From IMG/VR virus record IMGVR_UViG_3300028195_000021: a stretch of DNA of 23,801 nucleotides; one strand, written 5' to 3'. The notes below the pieces were generated by a model. The model searched no databases. It saw only the letters and a list, made by a program, of their open reading frames with translations, and was not told where the DNA came from. This DNA comes from a virus. Position numbers and translations under genes: made by a program. This document shows, in pieces, positions 1 through 22,787 of this stretch. How positions within the stretch are numbered: the stretch's first letter is position 1; every line of letters starts with the position of its first letter.

Positions 1-201
1 ATCAGCATCTACAATTGCAGGCACTGGTAGATTATTAGCTTTAGCTTCTGCTTTTGCAGCTTCTCTACGTTCTTTAGCTGCATTTTTTAATCTTTCTATT
101 TCTACTTGACCATTAGCTACACTACACATCATCACTGCCAACACTCCAAAAGTAAGTAACTTAATTCCCCATTTTGTAACCTTACTTTTTAGTTCATTCA
201 T
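1..201 (-). CDS. Partial ORF (N-terminal 67 aa, runs off the window): putative secreted or membrane-anchored protein
   Basis: Not in the ORF track. Hand translation from ATG at 201: MNELKSKVTKWGIKLLTFGVLAVMMCSVANGQVEIERLKNAAKERREAAKAEAKANNLPVPAIVDAD. Preceded by TAGGAG-TATACA-ATG. Basic N-terminus plus hydrophobic stretch resembles a signal peptide. Confidence 0.8.
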   Translation of the reverse strand, partial: MNELKSKVTKWGIKLLTFGVLAVMMCSVANGQVEIERLKNAAKERREAAKAEAKANNLPVPAIVDAD

Positions 202-210
202 TGTATACTC

Positions 211-279
211 CTAACAATTACAATTTTCACAAGTGCAATTTTCACATTCACAATTTGGATTATCACATACGTTTTTCAT
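211..279 (-). CDS. 22-aa Cys-rich metallothionein-like peptide MKNVCDNPNCECENCTCENCNC
   Basis: Not in the ORF track. ATG at 279 has TAGGAG 7 nt upstream (292-287) and TAG stop at 213-211. It has 7 Cys in a C-x4-CxC-xx-CxC-xx-CxC pattern and fills the gap between two genes exactly. Confidence 0.75.
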   Translation of the reverse strand: MKNVCDNPNCECENCTCENCNC

Positions 280-289
280 TTTATTTCTC

Positions 290-1336
290 CTAAAAATAAG
301 TTCCAAATAATATACTGAAACTCTTACCTCGTTCCCCATAATCATTAACTACGGTGTTATATCCCATTGAAACACCTAAATTAAATGAGAAAGCCGTTCC
401 TAATTTCCAATCCATTGATATGGTTGGCATAAAAATAACAGGACTTCTCAGTAATAAATATCTATCTCCTGGATTATTACCTTCATAATATCTCATTAGA
501 GTATAGGCAATATAGTTAGAAAATGTAATTGTATTTCCACCCATTATCTTAAATGGAAATCTTTGTCCATATACCATCGTTAAATTTCCAAAATTATTAC
601 CACTAACTCTTCCATATGTGCCTGAAAAAACAAATGCTTCAGCATTTTTCTTTTGTAATGATTTGGCATATGAAGTAGATAATAACCAATCCCATCCCTC
701 AAATGTTTGATATGTTAAAGCACTTCCATTCAATACTACATTTTGTTTTTTGGCTTTAAACTTAAATCCTTGACCATATGTAAGAGAACCTTTTCTGAAA
801 TCATTAGTAAAATTAAAATTACCATCGTGTCTTTTTCTACCATCAAATGAAGTTGCTGTATAAACACTATTGAAAGATGTTATCCATTTTTCCTCACCTT
901 GTGTAGAACGGATAGCATAATTAACCTGCTGTGGTGTAGATGATATATCTTCTCCACCACCTTCATCCTTACTAAATTGCTCACTAACATTTTCTGCAAG
1001 TACTGAAGATAATAACTCTTCTGCAACTTTAACTGCACAAGGAAACAAATCTTCGAAATCTTGATAAACTTTTTGTGCCCAATCTTCTATAGCGTATACT
1101 GGTACATTAGTTAATGGATCATACCTTACTATTTCTAATGCCTCTTCTAAGGTAAAAAACTTAGTACGATTGTAATAAGTTACTGTGAACCCTTTATCAT
1201 TTCCTGCAATTGAATAATTACTACGAACTACAGTTTGTTGACACGGGTCTATATAAGAATAAAAAAAAGATTGGGCAGAAACACTACTCCACAATAAAAA
1301 AATTAATATTAGTTTCTGCCACATCCATTTTACCAA
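290..1336 (-). CDS. Putative outer-membrane beta-barrel protein with signal peptide
   Basis: N-terminal signal peptide (WQKLILIFLLWSSVSA-Q). The C-terminal ~200 aa show alternating aromatic/hydrophobic strand patterns and end in SFSILFGTYF, a C-terminal Phe beta-signal. The annotated start is TTG; ATG at 1324 is an alternative. Confidence 0.55.
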   Translation of the reverse strand: MVKWMWQKLILIFLLWSSVSAQSFFYSYIDPCQQTVVRSNYSIAGNDKGFTVTYYNRTKFFTLEEALEIVRYDPLTNVPVYAIEDWAQKVYQDFEDLFPCAVKVAEELLSSVLAENVSEQFSKDEGGGEDISSTPQQVNYAIRSTQGEEKWITSFNSVYTATSFDGRKRHDGNFNFTNDFRKGSLTYGQGFKFKAKKQNVVLNGSALTYQTFEGWDWLLSTSYAKSLQKKNAEAFVFSGTYGRVSGNNFGNLTMVYGQRFPFKIMGGNTITFSNYIAYTLMRYYEGNNPGDRYLLLRSPVIFMPTISMDWKLGTAFSFNLGVSMGYNTVVNDYGERGKSFSILFGTYF

Positions 1337-1992
1337 CCCCTACGGTCAATTGCTTTTATAACATTGACTACGGCTGTCTCCATAGCTTTATTTGATGCGG
1401 AACTTAAAGAAGATTGATTCCAAGCCATATTAGGATTCATAAGAAATCCTCTACCTACGGTTGAAGCTCTTCCTTGACCACTACCAACAACATACTGTGT
1501 ATTCTCATTGTTAATCAACTTAACCTGAATACCAACTATTGTTTCATTGATAGTCTCCACCTTACCAGCTTTTATTTCTTCTTTTAGATTGACAGCAAAA
1601 TCATAAATGGTTACATAACCAGAATACTTTGCCGTTGTGATTTTAGCCTTATTAGCTTTCAAATCATTTCTGATAGCTAACTGCATATCTCTGTCGGCTT
1701 CAATCATATTAAATCTACCGATATAAGATACAACGTTCTGAAGTTCTTGTGTTAGACCGAAAGCAACTCTCTTCTCTGCTAGTTCAGGATATCGTTCTTC
1801 CATATCTTTATTAGCTCTTACTTCAAGTATTTTTAATCCATCTACTTTAGTTACGACAACTTCATCCATTGATTTTTCTTTTTCATACTCACCTACATAT
1901 TGTTCTGTTTGAACGGAAGCCGCACACCCAATTATTTGGGACATTACGAATCCTAAAACAACAAACAATACAAAACGATAATTGTTTTTCAT
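1330..1992 (-). CDS. csgG: CsgG/HfaB-like outer-membrane lipoprotein
   Basis: Lipobox IIG-C at Cys23. GRFNMIE.DR, GYVTIYDF and VGIQVKLIN...VVGSGQG segments resemble the CsgG family. AGGAG RBS. Confidence 0.6.
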   Translation of the reverse strand: MKNNYRFVLFVVLGFVMSQIIGCAASVQTEQYVGEYEKEKSMDEVVVTKVDGLKILEVRANKDMEERYPELAEKRVAFGLTQELQNVVSYIGRFNMIEADRDMQLAIRNDLKANKAKITTAKYSGYVTIYDFAVNLKEEIKAGKVETINETIVGIQVKLINNENTQYVVGSGQGRASTVGRGFLMNPNMAWNQSSLSSASNKAMETAVVNVIKAIDRRGW

Positions 1993-2001
1993 TGTTATCT
2001 C

Positions 2002-2394
2002 CTATTTAAAATCTGCTAAAGGGTCTTTAAGTAGTTCTTCTAACTTCTTAATTTCTCTTTTCAAACCTTTGATTTCATTGGTTAAGTTAGCTACATCTTT
2101 ATCATAAGATTTAACTTTAGGTGTTTTTAAGTTATCAAGTTTATCACGAAGATACTTGATGTCTTCATCATATGAATCAAGTTTAGAAGTTACCAATTCT
2201 ATATCACTTGCATCTGCAAATCCTGTTACTATTTCTTCTAATCCATCAATACGACCAGTAAACGAATACCAACCTGCTATTCCTGTGGATAGAACCGTTA
2301 CAAGAGCTATGATATTTTGGATTGATAATCCAAACTTTTTATTCTTCATCTCTTCTACAGCGGATTCTGCATCCACTACTTTATTTTTCGCCAT
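2002..2394 (-). CDS. Single-pass membrane protein with C-terminal coiled coil
   Basis: Hydrophobic segment IIALVTVLSTGIAGWYSF followed by heptad-like Leu/Ile periodicity (VANLTNEIKGLKREIKKLEELL). Confidence 0.75.
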   Translation of the reverse strand: MAKNKVVDAESAVEEMKNKKFGLSIQNIIALVTVLSTGIAGWYSFTGRIDGLEEIVTGFADASDIELVTSKLDSYDEDIKYLRDKLDNLKTPKVKSYDKDVANLTNEIKGLKREIKKLEELLKDPLADFK

Positions 2395-2395
2395 T

Positions 2396-3232
2396 TTACA
2401 ACTCCAGGTTTATTGTTAATCTAATTGTGTTACTCAACGGTAACGTCTTGTCTCCATAAATATAACTCATACCAACAATATACTTGTCATATTTAAAATC
2501 TAATCCAAATGTGGGATAAGTTAATTCGTGCATATCATCCATATAATATCCAACTTTTCCCCACAACATATTTTTATAATTATAACTTGTTCCAACACCA
2601 AATGTTTGATGTTTTTCCATTTTATTAAATTGACCATAAAACATAAAATCTTTATATGGATATGTTCCAGCCACATTTACACTTGTGGGTAGTTCTGATT
2701 TATAACTACCGAACTTAGGTGCAAATCCAAAGTTACGAACCATAACATCTAAATCTAAATCTTTATACACTTTAGGAAAATAACCACCAACTCCAAATAC
2801 TAAACCGTTTGCTTTTTGAGTATGTAAGTCGTGTGTTATTAGTTTTACATCTAACCCTAAGTTATATTTACTAACCTTACGTGCATAACTAAAACCATAT
2901 ACTGCACTTAATGGTGTGAATTGTCCTTCTATAATTCCACTTTCATTTGTTTGATTTTGTTCTCCATAATTAAAGAACATAATATTAACTCCAAATGGGC
3001 CTCTATCAATATTTAAGAAATTATAACTCATATCATCTACAATATTAGTCATCCAATTTACTCTACTAAAACTGAAATGGTCTTTATCAAAAAGATTACG
3101 GGCTGGGTTCATCATTGGTAACATTACATTACCAATAGAACTTACTTGAGCAGTTGGTGCTAAGGTTAATATTCTATTTGCTTGTGCGAATATACTACTA
3201 AAAAGTAGTAATGTCAATAGTATTTTTTTCAT
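2396..3232 (-). CDS. porV: PorV/PorQ-family T9SS outer-membrane beta-barrel (shuttle-like protein)
   Basis: Signal peptide, then ILTLAPTAQVSSIGN...NPA...NWMTNIVDDM...FFNYGEQNQTNESGIIEGQFTP. These match the order and spacing of the conserved N-terminal PorV motifs as recalled (FL.I.P.AR..GMG / NPA / W...LV.D / YF..G.I..TDE.G...G.F.P). The remainder is amphipathic beta-strands. Confidence 0.75.
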   Translation of the reverse strand: MKKILLTLLLFSSIFAQANRILTLAPTAQVSSIGNVMLPMMNPARNLFDKDHFSFSRVNWMTNIVDDMSYNFLNIDRGPFGVNIMFFNYGEQNQTNESGIIEGQFTPLSAVYGFSYARKVSKYNLGLDVKLITHDLHTQKANGLVFGVGGYFPKVYKDLDLDVMVRNFGFAPKFGSYKSELPTSVNVAGTYPYKDFMFYGQFNKMEKHQTFGVGTSYNYKNMLWGKVGYYMDDMHELTYPTFGLDFKYDKYIVGMSYIYGDKTLPLSNTIRLTINLEL

Positions 3233-6003
3233 TATTTCACCACCGTAAATTTATTAGCTTTAATTCTATTATCTGTTTGCATTACAAAGATATAAACTCC
3301 TGGTTCTAATTTTTGATGATTTTCATACACACTCACATCAGGCAACCAAACCGTTGGTTCATTTGTAAAATCAAATGTATGTAATCCAGTCAACACGTGT
3401 TCATTTAAAAGTGTTCCTATTCTTTGTCCAATAGAATTTAAAATATATAATTGAACATCTTTTGGTTCATCTAAAAAGAATTGAAATTTAGTATTCTCTA
3501 TAAATGGGTTTGGATAGTTATATGTTATTGCTTCTTCATCTGGTTTTCCACCACCAAATGCCCAATACTTATTCCATACCCATACTTCACCATCACTCTT
3601 ACTCATAGTTAAGTCTCTACCTGCAGGTGTTCCAGCTGCGTGCTTACCAATAAAATTTATTGGAGCTTGTGTCCACTCAGTATCAGGAAACGCTGCTTCA
3701 AATACTAAATTTAATCCTACAATCTCTTTATCAATCCAATATCTTTCTGGTGCATTACTTGGTGAATAATCTACACCACCAAACGAAACCCTTTGCCAAT
3801 TATTTACGGGTTCGTGAACATTTACATATGTCATCCACGGGCCTGGTAAAATATCTGTTTTCATATCTATAAAATGTAATACCGTTGTATCAAACTCAAC
3901 TTCAAATTCAAAACCAGATATAAGAACTCCCGCTCTCGGTGTAATAGTTAACGGAACTTCTATCTGATTACCTGATTGAACTCTAACTGTAGAATCAGCG
4001 GGTAAAGAAAGAATAACGTCAACATTCTTAGATTTACTTAATATTCCTGGTGTATTATCTCCTATATTAATTTTTTGATTCCAGTTAGCTGGTGCATTAC
4101 CTACCGCCCCCCACCGATAATATGTTGTGGTATTAGTTTGTGTCTGATATGCATCACTACCAACTTTTGTACCTGTAGTGTTTATATCACCTGTAAAGAA
4201 ATATGATAAACTATCAATCGTGTAATCTGGATTTACATCATTTGTTACTTTATCTGCGTGCCACGTAGAAGTTCCAGCTCCAACATTATAATGTATCGTG
4301 TCTAATCCAGTTATAACATCATCCATCAATGGATTTAAAGTTTCTATAGGGTTATATGTTAAAGCTTGAGCTTGATTAAAATCTCCATCTTCAAATACTG
4401 TAAACTCATATTTTTGTAGTCTTGATTGTCCATTTAAAGTTTGATAATATCCACGAGCTGTTGGTGTTCCAGCTACGTGAAACGTATCTATTGTAGACCA
4501 ATCCTCATAAGAGTTTCCATTATGGTGTGTATAGTTATTCATTATTCCTGATACATAACTCCATAATATATAAGTGTCGTTTAACTGAAATAAATCATCT
4601 CCGTCAACATCACCAATAAAGTATTCAATAGAATTTAATGTGTCTATTCTACCACCACCACTATTATAATTGTGATGTTTACCTGATTGGAAGTTAAATG
4701 ACATTATAGCATCGGTTACATTTGTAATTTGATTTCTATCTAATTCAAGTTGAACGTGGTTTTCAATATCATCACTTGCATCAGGAGGCCAAAATGACAT
4801 TCGGTATCCATTGTTTCTTGGTAACTGTATATTATAATATCCATTAGAATCTGTATAAGTTGAATCATAATAAGATATACCAAGAAATCCCTCTGCGGGC
4901 ACTACTTGGTCTGCTATTGTTGTTTTTTTAAGATAAAAATATCCTGGAGCTCCTGATTGATAATTACCAATAACGTCATCGGTAGTATTAGTTTCTGTTG
5001 TTGTAGTAGCATCTGTAATTGATTCTATGTTATACCAATTAGAATAAGAATGTGGATTACTTTGGTCTAATTCAAATTTTATTTTCCAATATGGATATGT
5101 GTTGTCTGTTGCTGTAGTGAATGCTGCTGCAACGGCTCTACCTTTACCTTGAACATATCTTAAATAACCCTCTACATCTACTAACTTTGGATGTAATGTA
5201 ATATCACCACGGGCACCACCTATACCAACTCCATCTTGTCCTGTGTTACCATCTATATAAACTTGATATGTAGTTAGATAATTTCCATTTGTTACATAAG
5301 TATAATATCCAGTTCCAGCTAAATATTTAGTTGCTACTCTAAATGATTTAGCAGAAAAATTATCTACAACATCTTTTATTCTAAAATGTAATTTTAATAA
5401 TTCTGTTTGAGTAGAATCTCCATTACCAAATGTGTGCGTATTTCCATTATGAGAAACCATTGTGATTCTTAACCAATCATATCGAGCATCTGTAATAGAT
5501 TTTGAAGTATCTTGTGTTCCACCTGCGGCTAATGAATCAGCATATCCTACATCAGCATACCTAACAACTTCGTAAGAGTAATGTGCAGCTGCTGCACTAT
5601 CTCCTTCAGTCCAACCATTTATATATGCACCTTTCTCTACGTGGGTTGAATCGTGAGTCCAATCTATTAAATCATTATCAAATACTAAATCTAAACGAAA
5701 AGCAGTTACATCGGCATCGTTGTCATCAAGTGTAACAGCAATTGTCATTACTGAATCTCTCCAAGCATCAAAGTTATTATTCTTATACGCAACACCTCTA
5801 GTCTTACTTTTATAAGTACCGTTAGTTGGATTAGCTAAACCAGTAGTATCATCTGCTAAAAATCCTCTTAGCTTAAAATTTTCTTGTGCTCCCCACCAAT
5901 ACTTTGGTGTGTTATACTCCCTTGATTGCATAAGTCTAATTATTGGTGTCTGAGTATATACGAAACTCATCACCATCAAGAGGCTTAATAAAAATTTACG
6001 CAA
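3232..6003 (-). CDS. Secreted cohesin/dockerin-like protein with T9SS type A C-terminal sorting domain
   Basis: TTG start with GAGGAG RBS and signal peptide. Cohesin-like segment at ~5370-5755 (IAVTLD...VTAFRLDLVFD...LRITMVS...LLKLHFRIK). Dockerin-like Ca-binding motif at ~4540-4740 (VTDAIMSF...GDVDGDDLFQLNDTYILWSYVSG). Second cohesin-like segment at ~3610-3990 (IEVPLTI...ISGFEFEVEFDTTVLHF). C-terminal YNYPNPF...VQLYILNSIGQRIGTLLN...LEPGVYIFVMQT...KFTVVK is typical of T9SS CTDs. Confidence 0.8.
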   Translation of the reverse strand: MRKFLLSLLMVMSFVYTQTPIIRLMQSREYNTPKYWWGAQENFKLRGFLADDTTGLANPTNGTYKSKTRGVAYKNNNFDAWRDSVMTIAVTLDDNDADVTAFRLDLVFDNDLIDWTHDSTHVEKGAYINGWTEGDSAAAAHYSYEVVRYADVGYADSLAAGGTQDTSKSITDARYDWLRITMVSHNGNTHTFGNGDSTQTELLKLHFRIKDVVDNFSAKSFRVATKYLAGTGYYTYVTNGNYLTTYQVYIDGNTGQDGVGIGGARGDITLHPKLVDVEGYLRYVQGKGRAVAAAFTTATDNTYPYWKIKFELDQSNPHSYSNWYNIESITDATTTTETNTTDDVIGNYQSGAPGYFYLKKTTIADQVVPAEGFLGISYYDSTYTDSNGYYNIQLPRNNGYRMSFWPPDASDDIENHVQLELDRNQITNVTDAIMSFNFQSGKHHNYNSGGGRIDTLNSIEYFIGDVDGDDLFQLNDTYILWSYVSGIMNNYTHHNGNSYEDWSTIDTFHVAGTPTARGYYQTLNGQSRLQKYEFTVFEDGDFNQAQALTYNPIETLNPLMDDVITGLDTIHYNVGAGTSTWHADKVTNDVNPDYTIDSLSYFFTGDINTTGTKVGSDAYQTQTNTTTYYRWGAVGNAPANWNQKINIGDNTPGILSKSKNVDVILSLPADSTVRVQSGNQIEVPLTITPRAGVLISGFEFEVEFDTTVLHFIDMKTDILPGPWMTYVNVHEPVNNWQRVSFGGVDYSPSNAPERYWIDKEIVGLNLVFEAAFPDTEWTQAPINFIGKHAAGTPAGRDLTMSKSDGEVWVWNKYWAFGGGKPDEEAITYNYPNPFIENTKFQFFLDEPKDVQLYILNSIGQRIGTLLNEHVLTGLHTFDFTNEPTVWLPDVSVYENHQKLEPGVYIFVMQTDNRIKANKFTVVK

Positions 6004-6075
6004 TGTAAATCTCCTCGTTATGTTCTAAGTTAAGTAACCTTTTAGAATAAAAAGGGTTTTGATTTATTCCTTACA

Positions 6076-6085
6076 TATAAATATT
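6076..6085 (-). promoter_or_regulatory. Putative phage late-promoter motif (AATATTTATA on the coding strand; TATAAATATT on +)
   Basis: Intergenic, about 70 nt upstream of the 6003 start. The identical 10-mer occurs at 10406-10415 and the 8-mer core occurs three times at 22715-22787. Confidence 0.45.
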
Positions 6086-6161
6086 ATATATATAAGTTAT
6101 AATTAGTTTATTGGATGTATTAATTTGTATTAATTTGTGTCGAATTTCACAACAAAATTAC

Positions 6162-7274
6162 TTATAAATCAAACCTAATAGTGAATGCCATGTCATATTT
6201 TTTTGATTTTTTTATTGGTTTGGCAAGTTTTGAAACTGCTAATAAATCATCATTATCGTTATATAACCCTATCGTAGTTACATAAGTATGAAAATCTGAA
6301 TGTGATACAAAATTTTCTAACTTAAATGTAGGTTTTATTAAAGTATTTTCTTGATACTCTTCATATTTTGTATAATGACCAATTGCAGGATATGCACTTG
6401 AAGTTCTTTCTAACCCTTGTCTAACGTCTGGAAAATATTCTAAATTAGAACCTACCCAATCAGAACCAGAACCTTCAAAAGTTGCACTTTTATTTGTTGG
6501 GGTGTTAAATTCATTTTTCTTTGCTATGACTAAATATTCGTGTTCGTATATTGTTTGAGAATTTTCAAATTCTAATTCCCAACCATCAGAACCAGAACCT
6601 AAACCCACTTCATTATAACTACCTGTATCTGTTATACAAACTAATCCATGTTGATAAAAAACATTTCCAACTAAACTACCACTATTATTACTGTCTGGAG
6701 TTCCTGCTGCATAACTTGAACTAAATGCAGTATCGTACATATTGCCATAACCATCATCAACCAACACAAGTGTTTGTGATGTACTATTATCAAGTATTCT
6801 TACACTACCTGGATATATCTGTTCTCCAAAAAATTTACGGGGAACATTAAATACTTGTACTGAATCGTGTAATTGTCGTCTACGAGGTGTAGAAAGAGTT
6901 GTTTCATTAGGTCTTGGCCAAGCAAGTTCTAAATCATCAAAAGTTTTATCGGGTTGTGGACAGTTTGCAGACCATGGATTAGGTGTTTCTTCACCTTTTA
7001 CATATAAGTGATGAATTGATCTCCATATTGGTTTATGATACCAAGTACCAACACTATACCATTCATCTTTTCCGTGTCCTAAAGATTTAGATTCTTCACT
7101 AAATGCACCAATTGATTGTGAGGCCGCACTGGCAGAGTTAAACCCCAACAAACTTCCACTATGTCCTTCAAGAACAAAGACACCACTTCCAGAATCTACT
7201 TCTGTAAAGGAATATGCCTTATGAACCTTAAAGGGTGTGAATTTATAATCACCAACACCAAGGTTCTTAAACAT
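6162..7274 (-). CDS. Virion tail/baseplate protein, paralog of 7287-8360
   Basis: C-terminal YVTTIGLYNDNDDLLAVSKLAKPIKK...FTIRFDL resembles the C-terminal half of tail-collar fibre (P2 gpH N-terminal-type) domains. It lies in the baseplate operon. Confidence 0.6.
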   Translation of the reverse strand: MFKNLGVGDYKFTPFKVHKAYSFTEVDSGSGVFVLEGHSGSLLGFNSASAASQSIGAFSEESKSLGHGKDEWYSVGTWYHKPIWRSIHHLYVKGEETPNPWSANCPQPDKTFDDLELAWPRPNETTLSTPRRRQLHDSVQVFNVPRKFFGEQIYPGSVRILDNSTSQTLVLVDDGYGNMYDTAFSSSYAAGTPDSNNSGSLVGNVFYQHGLVCITDTGSYNEVGLGSGSDGWELEFENSQTIYEHEYLVIAKKNEFNTPTNKSATFEGSGSDWVGSNLEYFPDVRQGLERTSSAYPAIGHYTKYEEYQENTLIKPTFKLENFVSHSDFHTYVTTIGLYNDNDDLLAVSKLAKPIKKSKKYDMAFTIRFDL

Positions 7275-7286
7275 CCTGTATCTCCC

Positions 7287-8360
7287 TTAGAAGTCTAATC
7301 TGACTTTTACTGTTGCTTCTCTTGAGGGTGTTTTTAAGAATGGTTTGGAAAGTTTAGCGACTGCTAATAATTCATCTGTACCATTATACAAACCAACTGT
7401 AGTTACATAAGAACGAGGATCGGTTAAGAAATTAGGATTAGTTAAATCTCCATTACTTCCTGTAAAATATGTTGGATTTTGACTATAATTAAACATATTG
7501 TTTTTAACTCTACAGAAATAATGAGTTGATTTAATTTCTTCTTCACGTCTTGCTTGAAAATATCCCGTACCAGATGAATCTGATTTAAATGCTTTAAACA
7601 ACTTACTATGATTAAAGTCATCCGCGTTATCTGAATATGCAGTTCCTAAACTTACACCACTTACCGTGCCTGCGGCTTCTGCTGGTGCATCATCTAAGAG
7701 TTTTCTATCAAGATAAATCACACCTAAATATGGATAGAATCTACCATAATATTTCTTAGTAGTTCCAGTACTATATCGGTATGCGGATGCTCCACCTTGA
7801 ATTGAACCAGACACTACATTAAAATATGTAGATGCCTTTCCAGTTTCAGGGTTTGTAGTTGCATCACTATCATCAATTAGGCTTAATCCTTCAGCACCAG
7901 CTGGCGTTCGTAAATCTATTTGCCAGTTACCTGGATCCATTTTCTCTCTCATTCGGGCTCTTGCCACACTAAGAAAATATCCATCAGTAGAACTTGATTC
8001 TGCTCCCGTTGCCCCAATTTTAAAATATGTTTGGGATGGGGGAAGTATCAGATTCTTAAATTGTCTATAAATTGCCTGACTTGGATTATTACCTGATTGA
8101 GCATTCTTTGAACCACTTCCTGCGAAGTGTCCGTAAGCAATACTAAATTGTACCTCTGATGTAGTTGAAGATGTTACTTCGTTGTGAATATCTAAATAAT
8201 ATTCACCACTGCTTCCACTTTGTAAGGATGATGTAAACATCCCTGCTGTTGTGGATGTAGCATCTAATTTAATTGCTCCACCAGACCACATTCCAGTAGA
8301 TACCGTTGATGTTGTTTCTTGTACATCACTTTGGCCGTCGAATTCAACAAATACTGCCAT
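7287..8360 (-). CDS. Virion tail/baseplate protein, paralog of 6162-7274
   Basis: C-terminal YVTTVGLYNGTDELLAVAKLSKPFLK...VKVRLDF. It shares LIDD/LVDD and G.FY...G.I motifs with the neighbour. AGGAG RBS. Confidence 0.6.
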   Translation of the reverse strand: MAVFVEFDGQSDVQETTSTVSTGMWSGGAIKLDATSTTAGMFTSSLQSGSSGEYYLDIHNEVTSSTTSEVQFSIAYGHFAGSGSKNAQSGNNPSQAIYRQFKNLILPPSQTYFKIGATGAESSSTDGYFLSVARARMREKMDPGNWQIDLRTPAGAEGLSLIDDSDATTNPETGKASTYFNVVSGSIQGGASAYRYSTGTTKKYYGRFYPYLGVIYLDRKLLDDAPAEAAGTVSGVSLGTAYSDNADDFNHSKLFKAFKSDSSGTGYFQARREEEIKSTHYFCRVKNNMFNYSQNPTYFTGSNGDLTNPNFLTDPRSYVTTVGLYNGTDELLAVAKLSKPFLKTPSREATVKVRLDF

Positions 8361-8416
8361 TTTTAACTCCTGTTATAATAATTTAATTTTTTTGTCATTA
8401 CCCTACTCAATATTTA

Positions 8417-9103
8417 CTATCTCTCTACTGGGTTTCTTGGCCCGGTCGTTTTACCAATTCCTTTACTTGATAATTTTGCCATAAGTGCTGCTGCTTTCTT
8501 TTTCGCTGCTGCTGCGGCGGCGGCTGCGGCTAATGCGGATGTTGTGGCTGCAGTTGCTACCGATGGGGATGCCTTTTTCTTTTTCTTTGGTGCAGGATCC
8601 TTACCTAGTCCTAGGTTTAGGTTGCCTAAATTACCCAAATTACCTAAATTAGCTAAATTCGATATTCCACCCGATCCAGCTAACTTCTTTAATGCGTCTG
8701 TATCTATCATATCCCTTATTTCCTTTATGTTGGAAGGTAGGGGTGGCTCCACTTCATCCATTATATCTGGAATATCCAGTATTTTTTCTTCTTCTATTAA
8801 GTCAAGTTTTTCTATAATTTTTTCTTCTTTTATTATTTCTATAAGTTCCTCTGGTACTTGATTTGGGTTAAAGGTTTCTACAATTTGTCCACTTTCACTT
8901 AATGTAACCGCCCCACTATTACTCTGTATTGGTGCGTGTCTCCTACCCGCCTTAATTTTTAATTTAACTTTTGTTTCTTTACCAGTTTTTGAACCTTGTA
9001 AAGTTACATATACTTCTCTTTCAACAAAAGAATTTTTATCTGTTGGAACATTGGGTTTAAGAAATATTCCTATTTTTCTTCCTTGTTTTACTGATAATGG
9101 CAT
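8417..9103 (-). CDS. Hypothetical protein with structural-protein-like N-terminus and low-complexity C-terminal tail
   Basis: AGGAGG RBS. N-terminal VYVTLQGSKTGKETKVKLKI resembles the C-terminus of 9623-10318. Followed by acidic, NLG-repeat, poly-Lys and poly-Ala tracts. Confidence 0.75.
   Translation of the reverse strand: MPLSVKQGRKIGIFLKPNVPTDKNSFVEREVYVTLQGSKTGKETKVKLKIKAGRRHAPIQSNSGAVTLSESGQIVETFNPNQVPEELIEIIKEEKIIEKLDLIEEEKILDIPDIMDEVEPPLPSNIKEIRDMIDTDALKKLAGSGGISNLANLGNLGNLGNLNLGLGKDPAPKKKKKASPSVATAATTSALAAAAAAAAAKKKAAALMAKLSSKGIGKTTGPRNPVER
8622..8657. repeat. Imperfect 9-bp tandem repeat x4 encoding NLA/NLG units
   Basis: ttgcctaaa-ttacccaaa-ttacctaaa-ttagctaaa within the 228-aa ORF. 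Confidence 0.85.
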
Positions 9104-9118
9104 TTTATTATTGTCCTC

Positions 9119-9616
9119 CTAAGTAGGCCTTTTCTCGGATCGTACATACGGTGATGCTATCGTATCTCCTTCAACAAATATATCAACAAAAGAATCATCA
9201 CTCAAAGTTATTGTATAGTTTTCATTTCCACCTAAATTTAATGTTTCGGGTGAAAGAACTATATTTGATAATGCACCTTCTAAATTTAATACATCGGGCA
9301 ATCCAGTAATTTCTTGCTCAAATCTACTCTGATTTATTTCACTTGTTAAAAGTGTTTTCATAGTAGAACTTGTTCCATCTTCTGTAGCTGCCGCTGTTCT
9401 TGTAAATGCCTCTAATACAGGCATTCCTAAAATAGAAGAATCAAAATAATCAGGACCCCGTGTATCAGTAACATTAAACATAGAATAATCCACTCCATCA
9501 TCAGATAGTGCAAATTTAACTATATTTAAATTGTCACCTTTAGATAAAAGTTGTCTACCTCTATCAGTTAATACGGCGTCTACAAATATTGCTTGGGATT
9601 TATCTAAAAAACTCAT
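9119..9616 (-). CDS. Virion structural protein, paralog of 9623-10318
   Basis: DAVLTDRGRQLLSKG...IVKFALSDDGVDY...MPVLEA aligns by eye with the neighbouring gene. Confidence 0.65.
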   Translation of the reverse strand: MSFLDKSQAIFVDAVLTDRGRQLLSKGDNLNIVKFALSDDGVDYSMFNVTDTRGPDYFDSSILGMPVLEAFTRTAAATEDGTSSTMKTLLTSEINQSRFEQEITGLPDVLNLEGALSNIVLSPETLNLGGNENYTITLSDDSFVDIFVEGDTIASPYVRSEKRPT

Positions 9617-9622
9617 ATATTA

Positions 9623-10318
9623 TTAACTCGCTGACGTTACTGTTACAGTTATACTGGCTGTTGCACCACTTGTTCTACCTCTAACTATCAATGTAGTTTT
9701 AGCGGGTGAAATCGTGGAACTAATTGCCTTACACTTAATATTAATAGTATCTCCCTTTTCCCTGGTAGTAATAGTTTGAGAACTTCTAAATTTTGTTCTT
9801 GACTCACTATTAAATCCACCTGAATCCGTTTCGTCACCATTAAGATATAAGAATGCTACATTGGTATTCAATAAAGTATAAGAATACGTTTCCGCCTGTT
9901 TTAAATTTTCAGTTGTTGGATTTATAGTAACTGCTGTTCTTGTTCCTCTACCATCATTACCTGTTTGGTTAAATGATAATGAAATACCATTATTTACTTG
10001 GTCTTCTATACCACTCAAATATGCCATTTGAGTTGGGTCTGGTGAACCTTGTAAATGTGTAGTATCTGCAAGAATTTTAAACTTCATAACTGACGCTTCG
10101 TTAGTTACAGCCTCCAAAATTGGCATATTTTCCAATACTGCCCCATAATAATCTGAACCAGATGGGTGTCCTGGATTCCATAAGGTATAATCTATTTCAT
10201 CATCACCTAATGCGAATTTTGTTATATTGAAGCTACCATCACCCTTAGCTAACAACTCACGACCTTTTGTTGTTAGAATAGCATCTAATACTTGTGTTGT
10301 TTTGTTTAAATATCCCAT
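9623..10318 (-). CDS. Virion structural protein (tail/baseplate associated)
   Basis: DAILTTKGRELLAKG...ITKFALGDDEIDY resembles the N-terminal half of tail-collar fibre domains (LT..G...LA...IT..A.GD). Operon context supports a structural role. Confidence 0.65.
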   Translation of the reverse strand: MGYLNKTTQVLDAILTTKGRELLAKGDGSFNITKFALGDDEIDYTLWNPGHPSGSDYYGAVLENMPILEAVTNEASVMKFKILADTTHLQGSPDPTQMAYLSGIEDQVNNGISLSFNQTGNDGRGTRTAVTINPTTENLKQAETYSYTLLNTNVAFLYLNGDETDSGGFNSESRTKFRSSQTITTREKGDTINIKCKAISSTISPAKTTLIVRGRTSGATASITVTVTSAS

Positions 10319-10405: not shown

Positions 10406-10415
10406 TATAAATATT
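10406..10415 (-). promoter_or_regulatory. Putative phage late-promoter motif (AATATTTATA on the coding strand)
   Basis: Intergenic 10-mer identical to 6076-6085, about 87 nt upstream of the 10318 start. Confidence 0.45.
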
Positions 10416-10430
10416 AAGTTTTTAATTAAG

Positions 10431-13400
10431 TTAGTCATCTTTTGCAATATCCAATGTATCTGCTCCAGTATCTAATTCAGTTGTTAATTTAACATTTGCC
10501 GAATCAAAAGTAGTGGCAACATATGGATTGGTTAATACCATAGTAACTGCATCATAGACAATTTGACCACTTAAATCCTTAGAAGGTAGTGCAGTTTCTT
10601 TAGTATTTCTACATCCTACAAATTGTAATCGTTCTAATGCTAAAACATCATCCGCCTGATTTTCATAACTTGATGAATTAAACGATACTCCACTTGCACT
10701 TCCTTGTAAAAAATGTTCTTTAGTACTATAAGTAAATACTTTCTTTTTATTAAATTTAGATGTTCTCTGTTCGTCAATCATAGCAATACTTTCAGTAAAT
10801 ATTGAACTAACACCACCTTGACTCACATAACTTCCTGAAAAATCACTTCCATAACCTCTTGTCATATGTCCAAAACTCATTATTGAACCAAAATGACTTG
10901 CCTTTCTCTCTATATAATCCTCATAATATTTTAATTCGGCTAAATTATCACCACTCAATATTCCCATATATTCTATTTCATTCTCTATTACGGGATTTTC
11001 CCCATGTAATTCAAATACATCACTACCACTATTTCTCAATTTAGTTAATGTATCTTCAAATACTGGATATTCTCTAAAAGTTTTTTCTCGTGCAATTTTA
11101 TTACGTTCTAATATATTATTTTCAATCAATACACCTACGGTTGCTTTAGCTCTAGCAGGTATCAATTTCTTAACTTGACTGAAAACACTATGGTCGAAAT
11201 AATTTATTAATCTCAAATAATCCCAAAAATTATTACTTCCGTTATATTTTCTCCAATACTTATCTGCAGTTTGTTTCAATCCACCATACTTATCATAGGT
11301 TTCTCTTGCATTATCTCTTGGGTCACCTAATTTATCTTCTAAATCTAAATCTGATAAAGTAAAAATAATATCTTCATTAATAACATCAACTGGAGAGAAA
11401 TATATTCCTAATCTTTCTGAATCTTTTGTCTCTATTGAACCTACACTTTTCTCAACTCTGTATTTTGTTGATAAATTCAAACTACCTTTAAACTCATCTT
11501 TTAATTGTCGAGGTGAAATCCTTGCTTTATTTGCACTTCGTCTTATTCCACCAATTGTTGGTAATGGCATTTTCAATCTATCTACTACATTTGAATAATT
11601 GTTCTCACTTGCAAAACCTTTTGCAGACCCCGTATATGGATAATTAGAATTTGCTGCCGTATTCCTAATAGACTTCTCACTATCTGCTCCCGTTCCATGA
11701 TTTGTATCTTCATTAAAAGATAATCGTTGTACTAACTCGTTCATTGAACCTGTAAAATTGTTTCCTACAAAAGATTGTGGTGTTTCCACGTGTGTATCAA
11801 AATGTTGTTCATCTAATGGAGTACTCCACAATCTAAATTCCATCATTGAGCCACTCAATCGCATATTATCACTCGGCACTTCATGTACTGAGCCTGATAC
11901 AAATCCTCCGTGAGAAACGCCTCCGCCACCAACATATAAATCTCCATCTTGTTCCCAACTACCAGAATAAGATGCAGATGCTGCGTTTGATAAACCATCA
12001 ATAATAAGTGATTCACGAGTTTGGTATTGAATAACATCTCTACCCGCATCAAATTGTTTAGCAATCAAATCAAACTTTAATGCTCCAGTTCCTATTTGTC
12101 TTAACTCTCCTTTATCGAAATATATTGTTTGTCCGTTTGTTTCATTATCTAATCTCACACCAATAAATTTTGTTTGTGGGTGTGATATTTTTGCCCTAAC
12201 GGTATATTTTTCCCACTTAGTTCCTATTCCATATGATGCTGGATGTAATGCTCCATATCCCCAATTTTTCTTTTGAGATGGATAATATGTATAACTTTCT
12301 TCTAATATATTTCCTTTTTCACCCAACTCCATAATCCACATTTGCATATTAGCACCACCAGTTTTAGACCGTGCATAAACACTAAAATCAAATTCCTCGG
12401 CAAATGATGCGGATGCTACTCTTGCATCTCCATAAGTACTTACATTAGTACCATCATCATTATTTGTAAATGGATAAGTGTATGCCTCTCCACTTGACTT
12501 TGTATTTTTAAATCCTAAACTATAAAGACCATCAAAAATATAAGAACTTTGTGAAACAACTTCTAATGTTCCACCATCTCCTACCGATTCAAATGGTGTT
12601 TGTAAACTTCCTGTTTCAAAATTGTATGAACCTGTTACCATTCCTACAGAACCAGAATGTATTCTTGTAGAGAATATCTCATCATTAACCAATTCTTTCC
12701 GTAACATCACCGACCAATAATCACCATTAAAAAATGGTAGTGCAGAACTTGTAACTTCTTTAATTTCTTCAGCTGGTGCACCAGATGCCTGAGAGCCACT
12801 AAGTGAAAATACTATGGAGGCCATATTATCTACTGAACCATTATCTTTTAAATGTATTCCCCATCCAGCTTCACGGGAGCCTCTATCCATATGAACCAAC
12901 TGCATATTAGAACTTGATACTGCCTTAAATCTAAACTCAACTGTCTTTGGTTTCATACCAGTATCGGTAGAATCCTTCCACTTTGTATGAACATATTGCG
13001 ATGTTTTAAAATCTAACGCCTTTGAAAATCTACGAACTGCTTCATAGTTGGGATTAACTTCATTTTTAGTTGGGCCACCATATTCTCTTACTCGTAATAT
13101 TGTAGATGGAATACCATAACAAGTTATCAATCCTTTTAATGCCTTTAACGTTCCTTTAGCCTTTAAAAACAATGGCATATTTGTTAATATTCGTTTCCAT
13201 ACTTCCTTACTAACATCTCCCAATGGTACTGATGAAGAGGATGTTATAGTATTATCTTGAGCAACTAATTTACCAGTTGTATATTCATCTAATTGTACTA
13301 AATCATAACCATCATATAATTGCCAACCAAGAGATTTAGCTATCGTAGAAGCTAACTGTTTAGGTAATCCTTTAGTTAATGATTCTTCTCTATCATAAAT

Positions 13401-15926
13401 TGAGGGTAATTCATCAATATAATTTTTAATGTTATCAAAATGTTGTCCTAACATTTTTACTAATCTTAAAAATACTTCATTTTCACTATCTCGTGATATA
13501 TGTTCAGGCATATGATAAATTAAATAATCTCTATTATAATAATCATAATTTGATGCACTTACTTTTTGATTTTCATACCAAGTATCTGCTACAGATTGTG
13601 TTGAATGATATAGAACATATGGTTTTGAAGTATTCTGTTTGGGCCAAGTAGCATCAAAATGCATTCCAAAACTACTTGTGGTAAAAGAAGCACTTTCATA
13701 ATAAAGATATTTCTCATACCCATCAAAATTATTCTTTAATTCATCTATTTGTAATTCTAATGAATCTAATTTTTGTTGAGAACCAGTCACTACCGTGTTA
13801 GGATCATTTCCTAATGCTCCCGAGCCTGTATATAATCCACTAATAGAAGAACTTTCTTGTTCGTATCCTTCAAGTTTTTCTAACTTATATTTAAAATTTG
13901 ATAATCTTTTTTCAGCTGAACTAAAATGTACAAAATTATCATACTCCGAATAATCAACATTTAATTCTGTTTCATTTATACTACCACTAATTACTTTATT
14001 TATAATATCCCTATAAAGAGAACTACTTTGAAAAGATAATTCTGACCAATTTTTATATTCAGTTGTGACTGGCTGTATTTGTTCTGATACTCCATCCGAA
14101 GTAGGGGGCAATAATATAGTTGAGGGTAATGGAGTCTCTATCCAAGGAATTAACTCTACACCAAAACTCTTATTAGGTATTACTTCTTCTACTATTTGAC
14201 AAGTACTTCCTATATTATATCGTTCTGGTAACGGTTGATATAATTTTAAAATTCCTGCGTGTCCGCCATTTTTATTATTAACTATTAAACTTCTATAACC
14301 ATCCCTAAAATACATATATGTTCTAAGATTACTCACAGTAGATTTATTTGTTATAAAAAACATTGGTCTATCTATATAAACTGTATCACTGGTTGGTGCT
14401 TCGAATAAAAATAAACCATTTCTTTTAGCGTAGTCTTTTGGTGTTTCTTCTAATACTATTCTATTAAGAAACTCTCCGTCATAACTAACACTTGAAATTT
14501 TTCCTGTATAATCAGCGTATCTTTTTACTTCTTCAAAAGTTGTTACTGTGTCTTGTCTTGCTTGTAAATCTCCTAAATTATAATCATCCGTCATATAAAA
14601 ATAACCTGCTAAATCATTTACAGTACCATCTAAAGCACCCCAATCACTAATATAATTCCCAATCTGGGTTTCTGTTATAGTACTAGCGGCACTTGCTAAG
14701 ATACCATAATCATCCCAATTCATAGTCAGACCATTAATATCTTTAAATTTTCTTAATACGTCTCTATTTTTAATCCACCACTCTTGAGCCCTATTATGAT
14801 ATTCTACCTCTACGGAGTTATCATGATCCCTTGCTTCGTGCTGCAATTCTTCCCACATATCAATGATAGGAGTTATATGGTTCTGTTGAATTGCCTGTTT
14901 TAAAGACATTCCAACAATCAACACATTACTTAAAAACTCCCCTGATGCATCTTGTTGTAATACACCAAGATTAGGAAGCCAAGAATCTGCAGCTCCATCA
15001 TATATCCATTGTGCCAAATCACTAATTGTTCCTGTTTGAGATCCCACGGGTGGTATGAGTGGTCTTGCCTCTACTTCAGTTTTCGTTACAATTTCTGTCT
15101 TTGGTACTTGTTCAACGGTGGTAACAAACATATCTCGTAATATAACATTGGTAGTTCCTTCAACATAAAATTTATCAAATTGTTCTCGTGTAACTACGTT
15201 GGTGGGGGAAGCCGTACCAAACTCTATAGAATTATCGCCGTGTGCTATTTGTCCAGACCTTACTCCTATTCCAGATGTACCAAAATTTTGTTCTGTTATT
15301 AGGTCTATATCGTCTATCTTAAGTGAGTTTGGGCTTTGAGTTCTTAAATAATATGTATAAGTTGGATTAAATAATAAATCTGTTTCTTCTAAATACTTTT
15401 CATTAGTAATATCTACATTGGGTGATATAATAACTTCATCTCGTAACGTTGAGATATTATTAATTTCTAATCCTGCATCAACCGAACCCAATATGGTGGT
15501 CTCATCTAACACATCCTTATATATATTACCATCTTCTGTAGTTGTAGTGGGGCCAGAATAAAATTCACCGCTTAGATCAATTGAACGAGCACCTGGTAAT
15601 CCACTTTTTCTTCTTAAAAATTCATATTGTACATTATAAGTTCCTTGATCGAATCCAAGTGTTCTTAAATGATTACCAATATTAAAGATAACTTTACCGT
15701 CTGAATCTAAATCAAATGCAGTAGATTTAAATGTTTGTGATAATAAAATCTCTGTACCACCAGAATCTATAACTTTAATTATTGCAAAATCATTTAAAAT
15801 CGGTTGGCCACCTACTATAAGTAAATCTGTAACAGAAGTACCAAATCCAGTAGTGTTAGTTCCACCCGATGTGACTTTACCTTGAGATAAATTTTGAAGA
15901 TCTTCTTGTAATAAAATACTTGACAT
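10431..15926 (-). CDS. Large baseplate wedge/tail protein (T4 gp7 or P2 gpI-like) with LamG-like and carbohydrate-binding-like domains
   Basis: LFLKAKGTLKALKGLITCYGIP motif (~13100-13170) typical of gpI/gp7-like wedge proteins. LamG-like KTVEFRFK...DLYVGG...LSGSMMEFRLWSTPL. Downstream of gp25 and gp6. Confidence 0.6.
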   Translation of the reverse strand: MSSILLQEDLQNLSQGKVTSGGTNTTGFGTSVTDLLIVGGQPILNDFAIIKVIDSGGTEILLSQTFKSTAFDLDSDGKVIFNIGNHLRTLGFDQGTYNVQYEFLRRKSGLPGARSIDLSGEFYSGPTTTTEDGNIYKDVLDETTILGSVDAGLEINNISTLRDEVIISPNVDITNEKYLEETDLLFNPTYTYYLRTQSPNSLKIDDIDLITEQNFGTSGIGVRSGQIAHGDNSIEFGTASPTNVVTREQFDKFYVEGTTNVILRDMFVTTVEQVPKTEIVTKTEVEARPLIPPVGSQTGTISDLAQWIYDGAADSWLPNLGVLQQDASGEFLSNVLIVGMSLKQAIQQNHITPIIDMWEELQHEARDHDNSVEVEYHNRAQEWWIKNRDVLRKFKDINGLTMNWDDYGILASAASTITETQIGNYISDWGALDGTVNDLAGYFYMTDDYNLGDLQARQDTVTTFEEVKRYADYTGKISSVSYDGEFLNRIVLEETPKDYAKRNGLFLFEAPTSDTVYIDRPMFFITNKSTVSNLRTYMYFRDGYRSLIVNNKNGGHAGILKLYQPLPERYNIGSTCQIVEEVIPNKSFGVELIPWIETPLPSTILLPPTSDGVSEQIQPVTTEYKNWSELSFQSSSLYRDIINKVISGSINETELNVDYSEYDNFVHFSSAEKRLSNFKYKLEKLEGYEQESSSISGLYTGSGALGNDPNTVVTGSQQKLDSLELQIDELKNNFDGYEKYLYYESASFTTSSFGMHFDATWPKQNTSKPYVLYHSTQSVADTWYENQKVSASNYDYYNRDYLIYHMPEHISRDSENEVFLRLVKMLGQHFDNIKNYIDELPSIYDREESLTKGLPKQLASTIAKSLGWQLYDGYDLVQLDEYTTGKLVAQDNTITSSSSVPLGDVSKEVWKRILTNMPLFLKAKGTLKALKGLITCYGIPSTILRVREYGGPTKNEVNPNYEAVRRFSKALDFKTSQYVHTKWKDSTDTGMKPKTVEFRFKAVSSSNMQLVHMDRGSREAGWGIHLKDNGSVDNMASIVFSLSGSQASGAPAEEIKEVTSSALPFFNGDYWSVMLRKELVNDEIFSTRIHSGSVGMVTGSYNFETGSLQTPFESVGDGGTLEVVSQSSYIFDGLYSLGFKNTKSSGEAYTYPFTNNDDGTNVSTYGDARVASASFAEEFDFSVYARSKTGGANMQMWIMELGEKGNILEESYTYYPSQKKNWGYGALHPASYGIGTKWEKYTVRAKISHPQTKFIGVRLDNETNGQTIYFDKGELRQIGTGALKFDLIAKQFDAGRDVIQYQTRESLIIDGLSNAASASYSGSWEQDGDLYVGGGGVSHGGFVSGSVHEVPSDNMRLSGSMMEFRLWSTPLDEQHFDTHVETPQSFVGNNFTGSMNELVQRLSFNEDTNHGTGADSEKSIRNTAANSNYPYTGSAKGFASENNYSNVVDRLKMPLPTIGGIRRSANKARISPRQLKDEFKGSLNLSTKYRVEKSVGSIETKDSERLGIYFSPVDVINEDIIFTLSDLDLEDKLGDPRDNARETYDKYGGLKQTADKYWRKYNGSNNFWDYLRLINYFDHSVFSQVKKLIPARAKATVGVLIENNILERNKIAREKTFREYPVFEDTLTKLRNSGSDVFELHGENPVIENEIEYMGILSGDNLAELKYYEDYIERKASHFGSIMSFGHMTRGYGSDFSGSYVSQGGVSSIFTESIAMIDEQRTSKFNKKKVFTYSTKEHFLQGSASGVSFNSSSYENQADDVLALERLQFVGCRNTKETALPSKDLSGQIVYDAVTMVLTNPYVATTFDSANVKLTTELDTGADTLDIAKDD

Positions 15927-22714: not shown

Positions 22715-22787
22715 TATAAATATAACTTTAAATTTATTCTGTTTTATATAAATATATACTAAAAAAAGAAATTCTCATATATAAATA
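22715..22787. promoter_or_regulatory. Divergent intergenic region with three TATAAATA/TATTTATA motifs
   Basis: Exact TATAAATA on + at 22715-22722, 22747-22754 and 22780-22787, between divergently transcribed genes. Confidence 0.5.

Follow-up and report, generated by a model that had tools for sequence, protein, structure and literature searches.

In the secretion system called type IX (T9SS), PorV collects cargo proteins bearing a C-terminal domain (CTD) as they leave the translocon, and PorU and PorZ are held at the cell surface by PorV and PorQ, respectively (PMC5562754). Phage genes with type-A T9SS domains were described in the 'Cryophage', together with a proposed hijack of the host system, possibly for exclusion or competition (Bellas, 2020; PMC7468147), and pelagimyophages carry a CsgG/CsgF curli-type cluster of unknown role between their structural and replication modules (PMC7029224). 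Here we describe a cassette of envelope genes in a 23,801-nt stretch of viral DNA (hereafter the window), the reverse complement of positions 108-23908 of the single 26,960-bp virus record IMGVR_UViG_3300028195_000021. In this cassette the gene of a T9SS-tagged cargo protein is followed by that of a beta-barrel of the PorV/PorQ family and by further envelope genes. An earlier note on this DNA, written from its letters alone, knew of no characterised phage pair of T9SS cargo and PorV; predicted phage T9SS cargo has in fact been published (PMC7468147), but our literature searches turned up neither a PorV/PorQ-family protein encoded by a phage nor this cassette. What would be new here is a phage that exploits a host secretion system with a component of its own and with a fixed multi-protein cassette. 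Judging from the sequence comparisons below, we give about an even chance to the reading that this fixed and probably late-expressed cassette would display a phage cargo by way of the host translocon, with capture by the phage barrel, giving a phage-specified structure at the cell surface.

The tagged cargo and the PorV/PorQ-family barrel

The elements of the cassette are as follows.

6004-6161, minus strand: intergenic region upstream of the cargo gene, with a promoter-like motif (core 6076-6083) and a GAGGAG ribosome-binding site (RBS)
3232-6003, minus strand: cargo, 923 aa, with signal peptide, cohesin match (PF00963) and TIGR04183 type-A CTD
2396-3232, minus strand: PorV/PorQ-family barrel, 278 aa (NF033709), with a signal peptide ending ...IFA followed by Q
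2002-2394, minus strand: p130, predicted bitopic inner-membrane coiled-coil protein (from translation, hydropathy and conservation profile)
1330-1992, minus strand: p220, predicted lipoprotein with invariant lipobox Cys23
290-1324 (open reading frame, ORF, listed as 290-1336), minus strand: p344, Cys-pair domain plus probable beta-barrel (from ortholog alignment)
211-279, minus strand: Cys-rich micro-ORF of 22 aa with 7 Cys, having its own AGGAG RBS and recurring in relatives
1-201, minus strand: start of p212 (first 67 codons of 212 aa), complete on the contig at L017:109-747
outside the window, L017:744-1463: p239, overlapping p212 by 4 nt

All of the genes that the earlier note had described in positions 1-6003 were present on the minus strand and in the places it gave them, and the partial ORF at the window's edge, in which it saw a signal-peptide-like start, is the beginning of p212, a predicted exported protein whose full length lies on the 26,960-bp contig. 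Three features of the cassette had been missed: p239, which lies past the window, the paralogy of p220 and p212, and the Cys-rich micro-ORF. The reported overlap of the cargo stop with the barrel start exists in the window, where it amounts to one base, but is not conserved, there being a gap of ~98 nt in L010-L012. In these three relatives, a 33-aa ORF separates the cargo gene from that of the barrel (at 9903-10004 in L010).

The cargo gene begins with a TTG codon after the GAGGAG RBS, and its product has a predicted Sec signal peptide with Gln at +1. The cohesin match of the passenger (Pfam; 27.5 bits, cut-off 24.1) aligned only profile positions 7-52 of 139 and was found in nine of ten cargo orthologs; no catalytic domain was found in the passenger, and a dockerin-like motif had no HMM support. 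At the other end of the protein, residues 830-921 of 923 matched TIGR04183 (NCBIfam) at 23.3 bits against a cut-off of 23, which is borderline in the window, and orthologs scored 26.5-30.2 bits. The CTD was matched in 8/8 close and 10/10 diverse orthologs, whose alignment showed a YNYPNPF...GVYIF...K..KFTVVK pattern at the extreme C-terminus; with Pfam PF18962 the window cargo reached 14.6 bits, under the cut-off of 27. The earlier assignment of this C-terminus to the T9SS CTDs was thus borne out, with a type-A CTD recognised in the window and in every ortholog tested. When the cargo profile was run against 301 Flavobacteriales genomes, matches were confined to the CTD (model positions ~832-935), and tblastn found no match to the cargo among 50,697 deposited phages. 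Since the cargo matches cellular proteins over the CTD only, its passenger is phage-specific and its tag host-type. In each large phage record scanned (G001, described below, and five more), exactly one CTD protein exceeded the TIGR04183 cut-off, and this was the cassette cargo.

The barrel matched the PorV/PorQ family model NF033709 (NCBIfam) at 103.9 bits (cut-off 90, E 1e-29) over profile positions 23-325 of 326; two divergent orthologs fell below this cut-off, at 73 bits (L054) and 89.4 bits (L052). With the equivalog models it scored 54.9 bits for PorV (NF033710, cut-off 250 not reached; cellular Flavobacteriales PorV ~490) and 62.2 bits for PorQ (NF033711, cut-off 220 not reached; cellular PorQ 278-356). 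Its sole match among solved structures was F. johnsoniae PorV (6H3I_F, E 5.7e-5, residues 30-135 and 200-275). Structurally, the family is defined by a 14-stranded, FadL-like barrel of the outer membrane to which a CTD binds, a build that the phage protein would share. The phage barrels, of 278-306 aa, are shorter than cellular PorV and PorQ (334-425 aa) and retain the N-terminal family motifs despite this shortening; the cellular proteins in turn reached at most 49-61 bits on the phage barrel profile. Phylogenetic analysis with IQ-TREE resolved three groups, namely PorV (support 100/99), PorQ (100/100) and the phage proteins (89/77), and the split inside the phage group was about as deep as that between PorV and PorQ. 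No match to the barrel was found by tblastn among the 50,697 deposited phages, and Pfam and PHROGs searches of the window proteins yielded nothing for the barrel, p220 or p344, the T9SS parts being recognised by NCBIfam only. These comparisons place the barrel in a third, shortened, phage-specific branch of the PorV/PorQ family. The earlier description of it as a PorV therefore holds at the level of the family, above the NF033709 cut-off, and not at the level of the equivalog, as the protein is neither PorV nor PorQ and falls in a clade of its own. Similarly, the 'dedicated shuttle' proposed for it is one option, and a dock resembling PorQ-PorZ is equally open, because the barrel, which partners a single cargo, is as far from PorV as from PorQ.

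Conservation, viral origin and probable host

A first scan recovered the cassette in nine viral contigs, and a second, made with a more diverse alignment, recovered it in 45. Iterated profile searches showed the same gene order in 45/45 loci, as far as the contigs reach: fibre-like 357, fibre-like 370, cargo, barrel, p130, p220, p348, p212 and p239, where p348 denotes the slot held by p344 in the window. The synteny survey suggested by the earlier note accordingly showed a module that recurs in constant order, with barrels ~25% to 99% identical to that of the window. Among close relatives, the cassette proteins were 67-100% identical as compared with 33-65% for the adjacent fibre genes. In marine metagenomes the lineage is common, individual variants of its proteins occurring on up to 98-244 contigs. 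Such strict conservation, as seen in these sequences, argues against an optional accessory gene set.

We also compared the divergence of the CTD with that of its neighbours, using pairwise identities for 153 pairs of 18 non-redundant genomes. CTD identity correlated with that of p220 (r = 0.94), p130 (0.88), p348 (0.85) and the barrel (0.80), and less with that of its own passenger (r = 0.45). Two cassette types could be distinguished, and the CTD changes type along with the envelope genes. This covariation is consistent with a tag that functions alongside components supplied by the phage itself.

Several lines of evidence place the cassette on a phage genome. All long ORFs of the window are on the minus strand, its GC content is even (~0.29-0.38), and profile searches identified baseplate genes of the gp6/J-like and gp25/W-like kinds. 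A syntenic IMG/VR record, G001 (65.6 kb; 40% complete by CheckV), carries a T4 gp23 capsid gene (258 bits), and NUDIX, PD-(D/E)XK, DnaG-like and gp47/46-type genes (the Metallophos-SMC nuclease) lie downstream of the cassette on an ENA contig of 179.6 kb. No recognisable host gene was found in the 3 kb of contig past window position 1, which hold the rest of p212, p239 and then small genes matching no family. The check for a viral contig that the earlier note had called for thus gave gp6 and gp25 in the window, gp23 and gp46/47-type genes on the syntenic contigs and no host flank. With a gp23-type capsid, gp6/gp25 and gp46/47, the contig belongs to a T4-like (Straboviridae-like) myovirus lineage. 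An extracellular contractile injection system or tailocin on a host chromosome was excluded by the capsid and replication genes on syntenic contigs and by the absence of host flanks. The nearest deposited phages were Flavobacterium phage vB_FspM_immuto (capsid 55%, gp6 38%), 'Microcystis' phage Mel-JY01 and Rhodothermus phage RM378, with which the window has baseplate and fibre-base genes in common. Among named phages, Mel-JY01 (PP395634.1, L016) had the most similar capsid and baseplate proteins, the metagenomic LR756508.1 being marginally closer on capsid; as Mel-JY01 groups with immuto and RM378, its assignment to a cyanobacterial host deserves rechecking. The two fibre-like proteins upstream of the cassette (357 and 370 aa; window 6162-10318, minus strand) are kept at all of the related loci, as well as in immuto and Mel-JY01, and had no Pfam or PHROG family match; the 1,831-aa protein encoded at window 10431-15926 likewise had no family match.

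The idea that the cassette is host DNA, brought in by mis-assembly or recent transfer and without a role in infection, draws on the otherwise cellular distribution of T9SS parts and on two copies that lie on contigs binned into bacterial metagenome-assembled genomes (MAGs). We consider it very improbable. The same gene order occurs on 45 independent viral contigs from many samples with phage genes on both flanks, GC is uniform across the window, and the phage clade is deeply diverged within itself. Furthermore, no cellular copy was found among the 301 Flavobacteriales genomes, in which the sole strong match to the barrel profile was a MAG-binned, phage-type contig (266 bits) and cellular proteins scored at most 49 bits. 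The MAG contigs themselves are just 2-9 kb long and carry cassette genes only. Host contamination was therefore rejected as the origin of the cassette.

The export signals point to the host. In every ortholog, the signal peptides of signal peptidase I type of the cargo, barrel, p344 and p212 end in A, G, S or T followed by Q. This 'Q-rule' is reported as a specific trait of Bacteroidetes that does not characterise the FCB group at large (PMC5837995), and phage proteins that obey it have been noted in phages of P. gingivalis (PMC10367356). Short phage-type contigs were, moreover, binned into two Flavobacteriales MAGs (NAT55 and 'Vicingus sp.'); the MAG-binned contigs are L018 (NZWA01000008.1), L019 (CAYRAD010000477.1) and L052 (G006:C381). 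They are probably phage fragments co-binned with a host, hence both a clue to the host and a contamination of the MAG. The MAG that was tested for both proteins encodes SprA (2,384 bits) and a PorV of its own (433 bits), and a search of four phage records (65-122 kb) found no SprA. This distribution fits the earlier suggestion that the phage borrows the translocon of its host. T9SS cargo by definition needs SprA/Sov and the GldKLMN/PorKLMN machinery for its secretion, a dependence that the phage cargo would share. From these sequence features, the hosts are probably Flavobacteria of the order Flavobacteriales. A pelagimyophage (SAR11) origin, considered for the GC content and the CsgG idea, was excluded by the T9SS parts, by adherence to the Q-rule and by the relatives of the capsid and baseplate proteins.

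Accessory envelope proteins, small elements and expression

The proteins encoded after the barrel have the marks of envelope components. p130 was found in every locus whose DNA reaches past the barrel gene and is predicted to consist of ~22 cytoplasmic residues, an N-in transmembrane (TM) helix and a periplasmic coiled coil of ~85 residues. Its best-conserved part is the TM helix with the juxtamembrane segment, including invariant polar residues, and searches of Pfam, NCBIfam and PHROGs gave only sub-threshold matches of coiled-coil type. p239 similarly combines a TM anchor with a coiled coil, and its C-terminal 40 residues are best conserved. L070/L071 and L082-L092 have 370-700 bp more between the p130 and p220 genes, in which a further small gene may lie.

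p220 is the best-conserved component of the cassette; its lipobox Cys23 is invariant across the family and Gly22 nearly so. It is a distant paralog of p212 (hhalign 94%, E 9e-8), which is non-lipidated, Sec-exported by its signal and has Q at +1 in all orthologs. The earlier note had called p220 a CsgG-like lipoprotein, a label that did not survive profile searches of Pfam, NCBIfam and PDB, in which p220 had no match to CsgG (PF03783); nor was CsgG matched by p212 in Pfam or NCBIfam, and PDB profile searches with both proteins, using shallow and deeper profiles, gave chance matches only. Compared by hhalign with a Flavobacteriales CsgG profile, neither p220 (0.8%) nor p212 (6%) was significant, and a merged p220+p212 profile reached 61% (E 8e-5, 133 columns). 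The ESM Atlas neighbours of p220 include CsgG clusters (0.94). For p220 and p344, the alignments given to AlphaFold2 (AF2) were shallow (18 and 9 close sequences, respectively), and the resulting models had a predicted local distance difference test score (pLDDT) of ~48. With the p220 model (pLDDT 48.5), Foldseek ranked CsgG 4UV2 first (prob 0.89, E 1.5e-3), followed by HpaA, LptE and PelC, at a TM-score of ~0.26. p220 and p212 may therefore have an alpha/beta fold of the CsgG/LptE/PelC/GNA1162 class of lipoproteins, a weak resemblance at the level of fold and not family membership.

The ortholog alignment set the true start of p344 at the fifth codon of the listed ORF, giving 344 aa. The protein has a signal peptide ending ...VSA followed by Q, and its N-terminal domain contains a variable insert and two invariant Cys. 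An acidic linker leads to a C-terminus ending ...FGTYF, and both this end and the signal peptide are conserved. Its C-terminal region contains 11-12 predicted beta strands (AF2, pLDDT 48.5), and Foldseek matches to this low-confidence model were all outer-membrane barrels (FapF, TamA, EspP and OpcA; E 0.01-0.1), making p344 a probable outer-membrane barrel on modelling grounds. It forms an orphan family, with 39 HMMER matches among 1.84 billion representatives, two of them full-length. PorP/SprF and a second barrel of the PorV family were both considered for p344 and rejected, as no NCBIfam match reached E <= 1 and hhalign to the barrel family aligned the signal peptide only. The window and the genome record differ at 60 positions, 48 of which fall within 510 bp of the N-terminal domain of p344 (758-1268), and an insert of ~15 residues in this domain is present in some relatives and absent in others. 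By these sequence differences, variation or recombination is concentrated locally in this exported domain.

Micro-ORFs of the kind found at 211-279 (11-36 aa, at least four Cys, CxC or CC patterns) were detected in 29/45 related loci. They mostly have a GGAG-type RBS 7-9 nt upstream and are without hydrophobic residues; in 28 loci they lie directly after the barrel gene, and in the window and one relative between p344 and p212. Examples in relatives begin at L085:8872, L076:8854, L095:8865 and L018:2445. This recurrence indicates an eighth element of the cassette and no chance ORF, for which metal binding or a role as a Cys-sensing leader is possible.

With regard to expression, the 158-bp gap upstream of the cargo gene contains the promoter-like motif TATATATAATATTTATATG (coding strand), whose core at 6076-6083 lies ~75 nt before the start codon. 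The motif (ATATTTATA) also precedes the fibre-gene and baseplate operons, and upstream of the cargo gene it has been conserved in L001, L002, L004, L007, L009, L010 and L011. No terminator-like site lies between the cassette and the fibre genes; the earlier note had seen no strong terminator between the block and the baseplate operon. Because the motif is common to the structural operons and conserved ahead of the cargo gene, late co-expression of the cassette with the structural genes is a reasonable inference. A T4 late promoter was rejected: on the coding strand the motif (TATTTATA) is the T4 late-promoter core in reverse complement, and it is no more frequent in the window than expected by chance. 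In plus-strand coordinates, the TATTTATA sites lie at 6076-6083 (cassette), 10406-10413 (fibre block) and 22715-22787 (baseplate operon).

Possible functions and relation to known systems

In the reading that we favour, host Sec would export the cargo, whose signal peptide obeys the Bacteroidetes Q-rule, and the type-A CTD would carry it through the host SprA/Sov translocon, as suggested by a tag that is present in the phage and a translocon that is absent from it. The phage barrel would then receive the cargo in the outer membrane, either as a PorV-like escort or by holding it at the surface through its CTD in the manner of PorQ-PorZ or PorV-PorU. p130, p239, p220, p212 and p344 may form an accessory envelope complex that cooperates with the barrel and the tag. 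As a net result, the infected cell would carry a new structure on its surface. As to purpose, which is the weakest link, masking or alteration of receptors (for superinfection exclusion or for protection of progeny from debris) or adhesion would be most likely; such purposes are favoured because the cassette adjoins the fibre genes. The earlier note had offered receptor masking, superinfection exclusion, adhesion to particles or an exit route as candidate purposes.

Several observations weigh against this reading. The correlations with CTD identity are confounded by shared ancestry and block recombination, and L106 and L107 provide a counter-example, with a CTD identity of 53% at a p220 identity of 94%. 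As the barrel fails both equivalog models, PorV-like binding of the CTD is extrapolated, and the low confidence of the p220 and p344 models (pLDDT ~48) makes their folds leads only. The total count of the promoter-like motif in the window is at chance level. The closest cultured relatives do not have the cassette, tail fibre or spike genes occupying that position. Lastly, conservation this strict looks more like that of a core function than that of a dispensable exclusion system.

A core function would suit a lysis or egress module, in which the cassette, or p130-p220-p344-p212-p239 within it, would be this lineage's equivalent of a holin and spanins, with the T9SS-type pair as an add-on: as infection ends, the bitopic coiled-coil proteins would span the periplasm to partners in the outer membrane and disrupt the envelope of the Bacteroidota host. 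The p130 gene is followed within 9 nt by that of a putative outer-membrane lipoprotein, which is the layout of a two-component spanin, and p239 combines an anchor and a coil with a C-terminus that is conserved; family searches recognised no endolysin, holin or spanin elsewhere in the contig, and the promoter-like motif is common to late structural operons. In T4, moreover, tail-fibre genes 37-38 are immediately followed by the holin gene t, which encodes a bitopic protein with a large periplasmic domain. Nevertheless, we regard this explanation as unlikely, since p220 is a conserved globular alpha/beta protein of 200 residues with a soluble paralog and not a short proline-rich o-spanin, the TM helix of p130 is its most conserved part and carries invariant polar residues, unlike spanin anchors, and PHROGs and Pfam gave no lysis-family match above sub-threshold coiled-coil noise. 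It would also leave the 923-aa CTD cargo, the PorV-family barrel and the second barrel unexplained, and CTD divergence tracks these very envelope genes. A self-contained trans-envelope apparatus built by the phage, of an as yet undescribed kind, is likewise a tentative alternative to which we give little weight: only the 'plug and socket' of CTD and PorV type would be taken from the T9SS, and the two barrels, the two putative CsgG-fold proteins (one lipidated), the two bitopic coiled-coil proteins and the Cys micropeptide would mount the 923-aa protein or open the envelope, independently of the host T9SS or loosely dependent on it.

Interference with the T9SS of the host, with the short barrel as a decoy against host PorV/PorQ at the translocon or attachment complex, the cargo as a jamming substrate and the secretion of adhesins that serve as receptors thereby blocked, seems to us improbable; exclusion would then come from blockade and not from display. 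The truncated barrel (278 aa versus 334-425 aa) that retains N-terminal family motifs would suit a decoy, and the cassette adjoins fibre genes, much as the receptor-blocking lipoprotein genes (T5 llp and the cor genes) adjoin those for receptor-binding proteins. In Flavobacterium, resistance to phages is also reported to map to gliding and T9SS genes (10.1101/2020.10.02.323337). However, a blockade needs fewer than seven or eight conserved genes, the large, conserved, cohesin-bearing passenger suggests a function of its own, and exclusion would be poorly served by the apparent late timing, although protection of progeny would still be possible.

Flavobacteria play a major part in breaking down algal organic matter in the sea, and their surface, including adhesins, glycanases and the gliding machinery, is built by the T9SS. 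With its T9SS-type cargo and its private member of the PorV/PorQ family, this would be the first phage known to encode a T9SS component, beyond tagged cargo alone, and the cassette would be a concrete candidate for a change in the surface of infected cells (exclusion, aggregation or particle attachment), with possible effects on carbon flux. It also offers a natural, minimal pair of CTD and barrel (278 aa) for the study of CTD recognition and holding, adds five co-evolving envelope proteins and a Cys micropeptide without known function, and can be tested directly in Flavobacterium johnsoniae.

Among described systems, a two-component spanin consists of a type II inner-membrane protein with a periplasmic coiled coil and a small, proline-rich outer-membrane lipoprotein, encoded by adjacent or embedded genes. 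The cassette resembles spanins and the T4-type holin in its predicted bitopic coiled-coil proteins beside a lipoprotein gene, its apparent late expression and its position after the fibre genes. It differs in that its lipoprotein is large, globular and duplicated, the p130 anchor is highly conserved and no family match was found, and the spanin model has no room for a CTD cargo and two barrels. With the pelagimyophage cluster it has in common the setting of marine T4-like phages with conserved outer-membrane genes of secretion type, and p220/p212 may belong to the CsgG fold class; that cluster, however, has genuine CsgG and CsgF and SAR11 hosts, whereas here there is no CsgG profile match, no CsgF, a different host phylum and T9SS parts. 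The Cryophage likewise has genes ending in type-A T9SS sorting domains (PMC7468147), but these are three variable, flexible genes of enzyme type (endoglucanase, GH39 and PA14), described without any secretion component, in contrast to the single conserved, non-enzymatic cargo, the fixed cassette and the phage's own PorV-family barrel described here. A further comparison is with the T9SS of P. gingivalis and F. johnsoniae (PMC5562754), with its PorV shuttle and its attachment-complex pairs, PorU with PorV and PorZ with PorQ, which the cassette matches in encoding a PorV/PorQ-family barrel beside a type-A CTD protein. It departs from them in being phage-encoded, with a barrel of 278 aa instead of 334-425 aa that forms a third clade, and in tying this barrel to one cargo and to a further five envelope proteins for which the T9SS has no counterpart by sequence.

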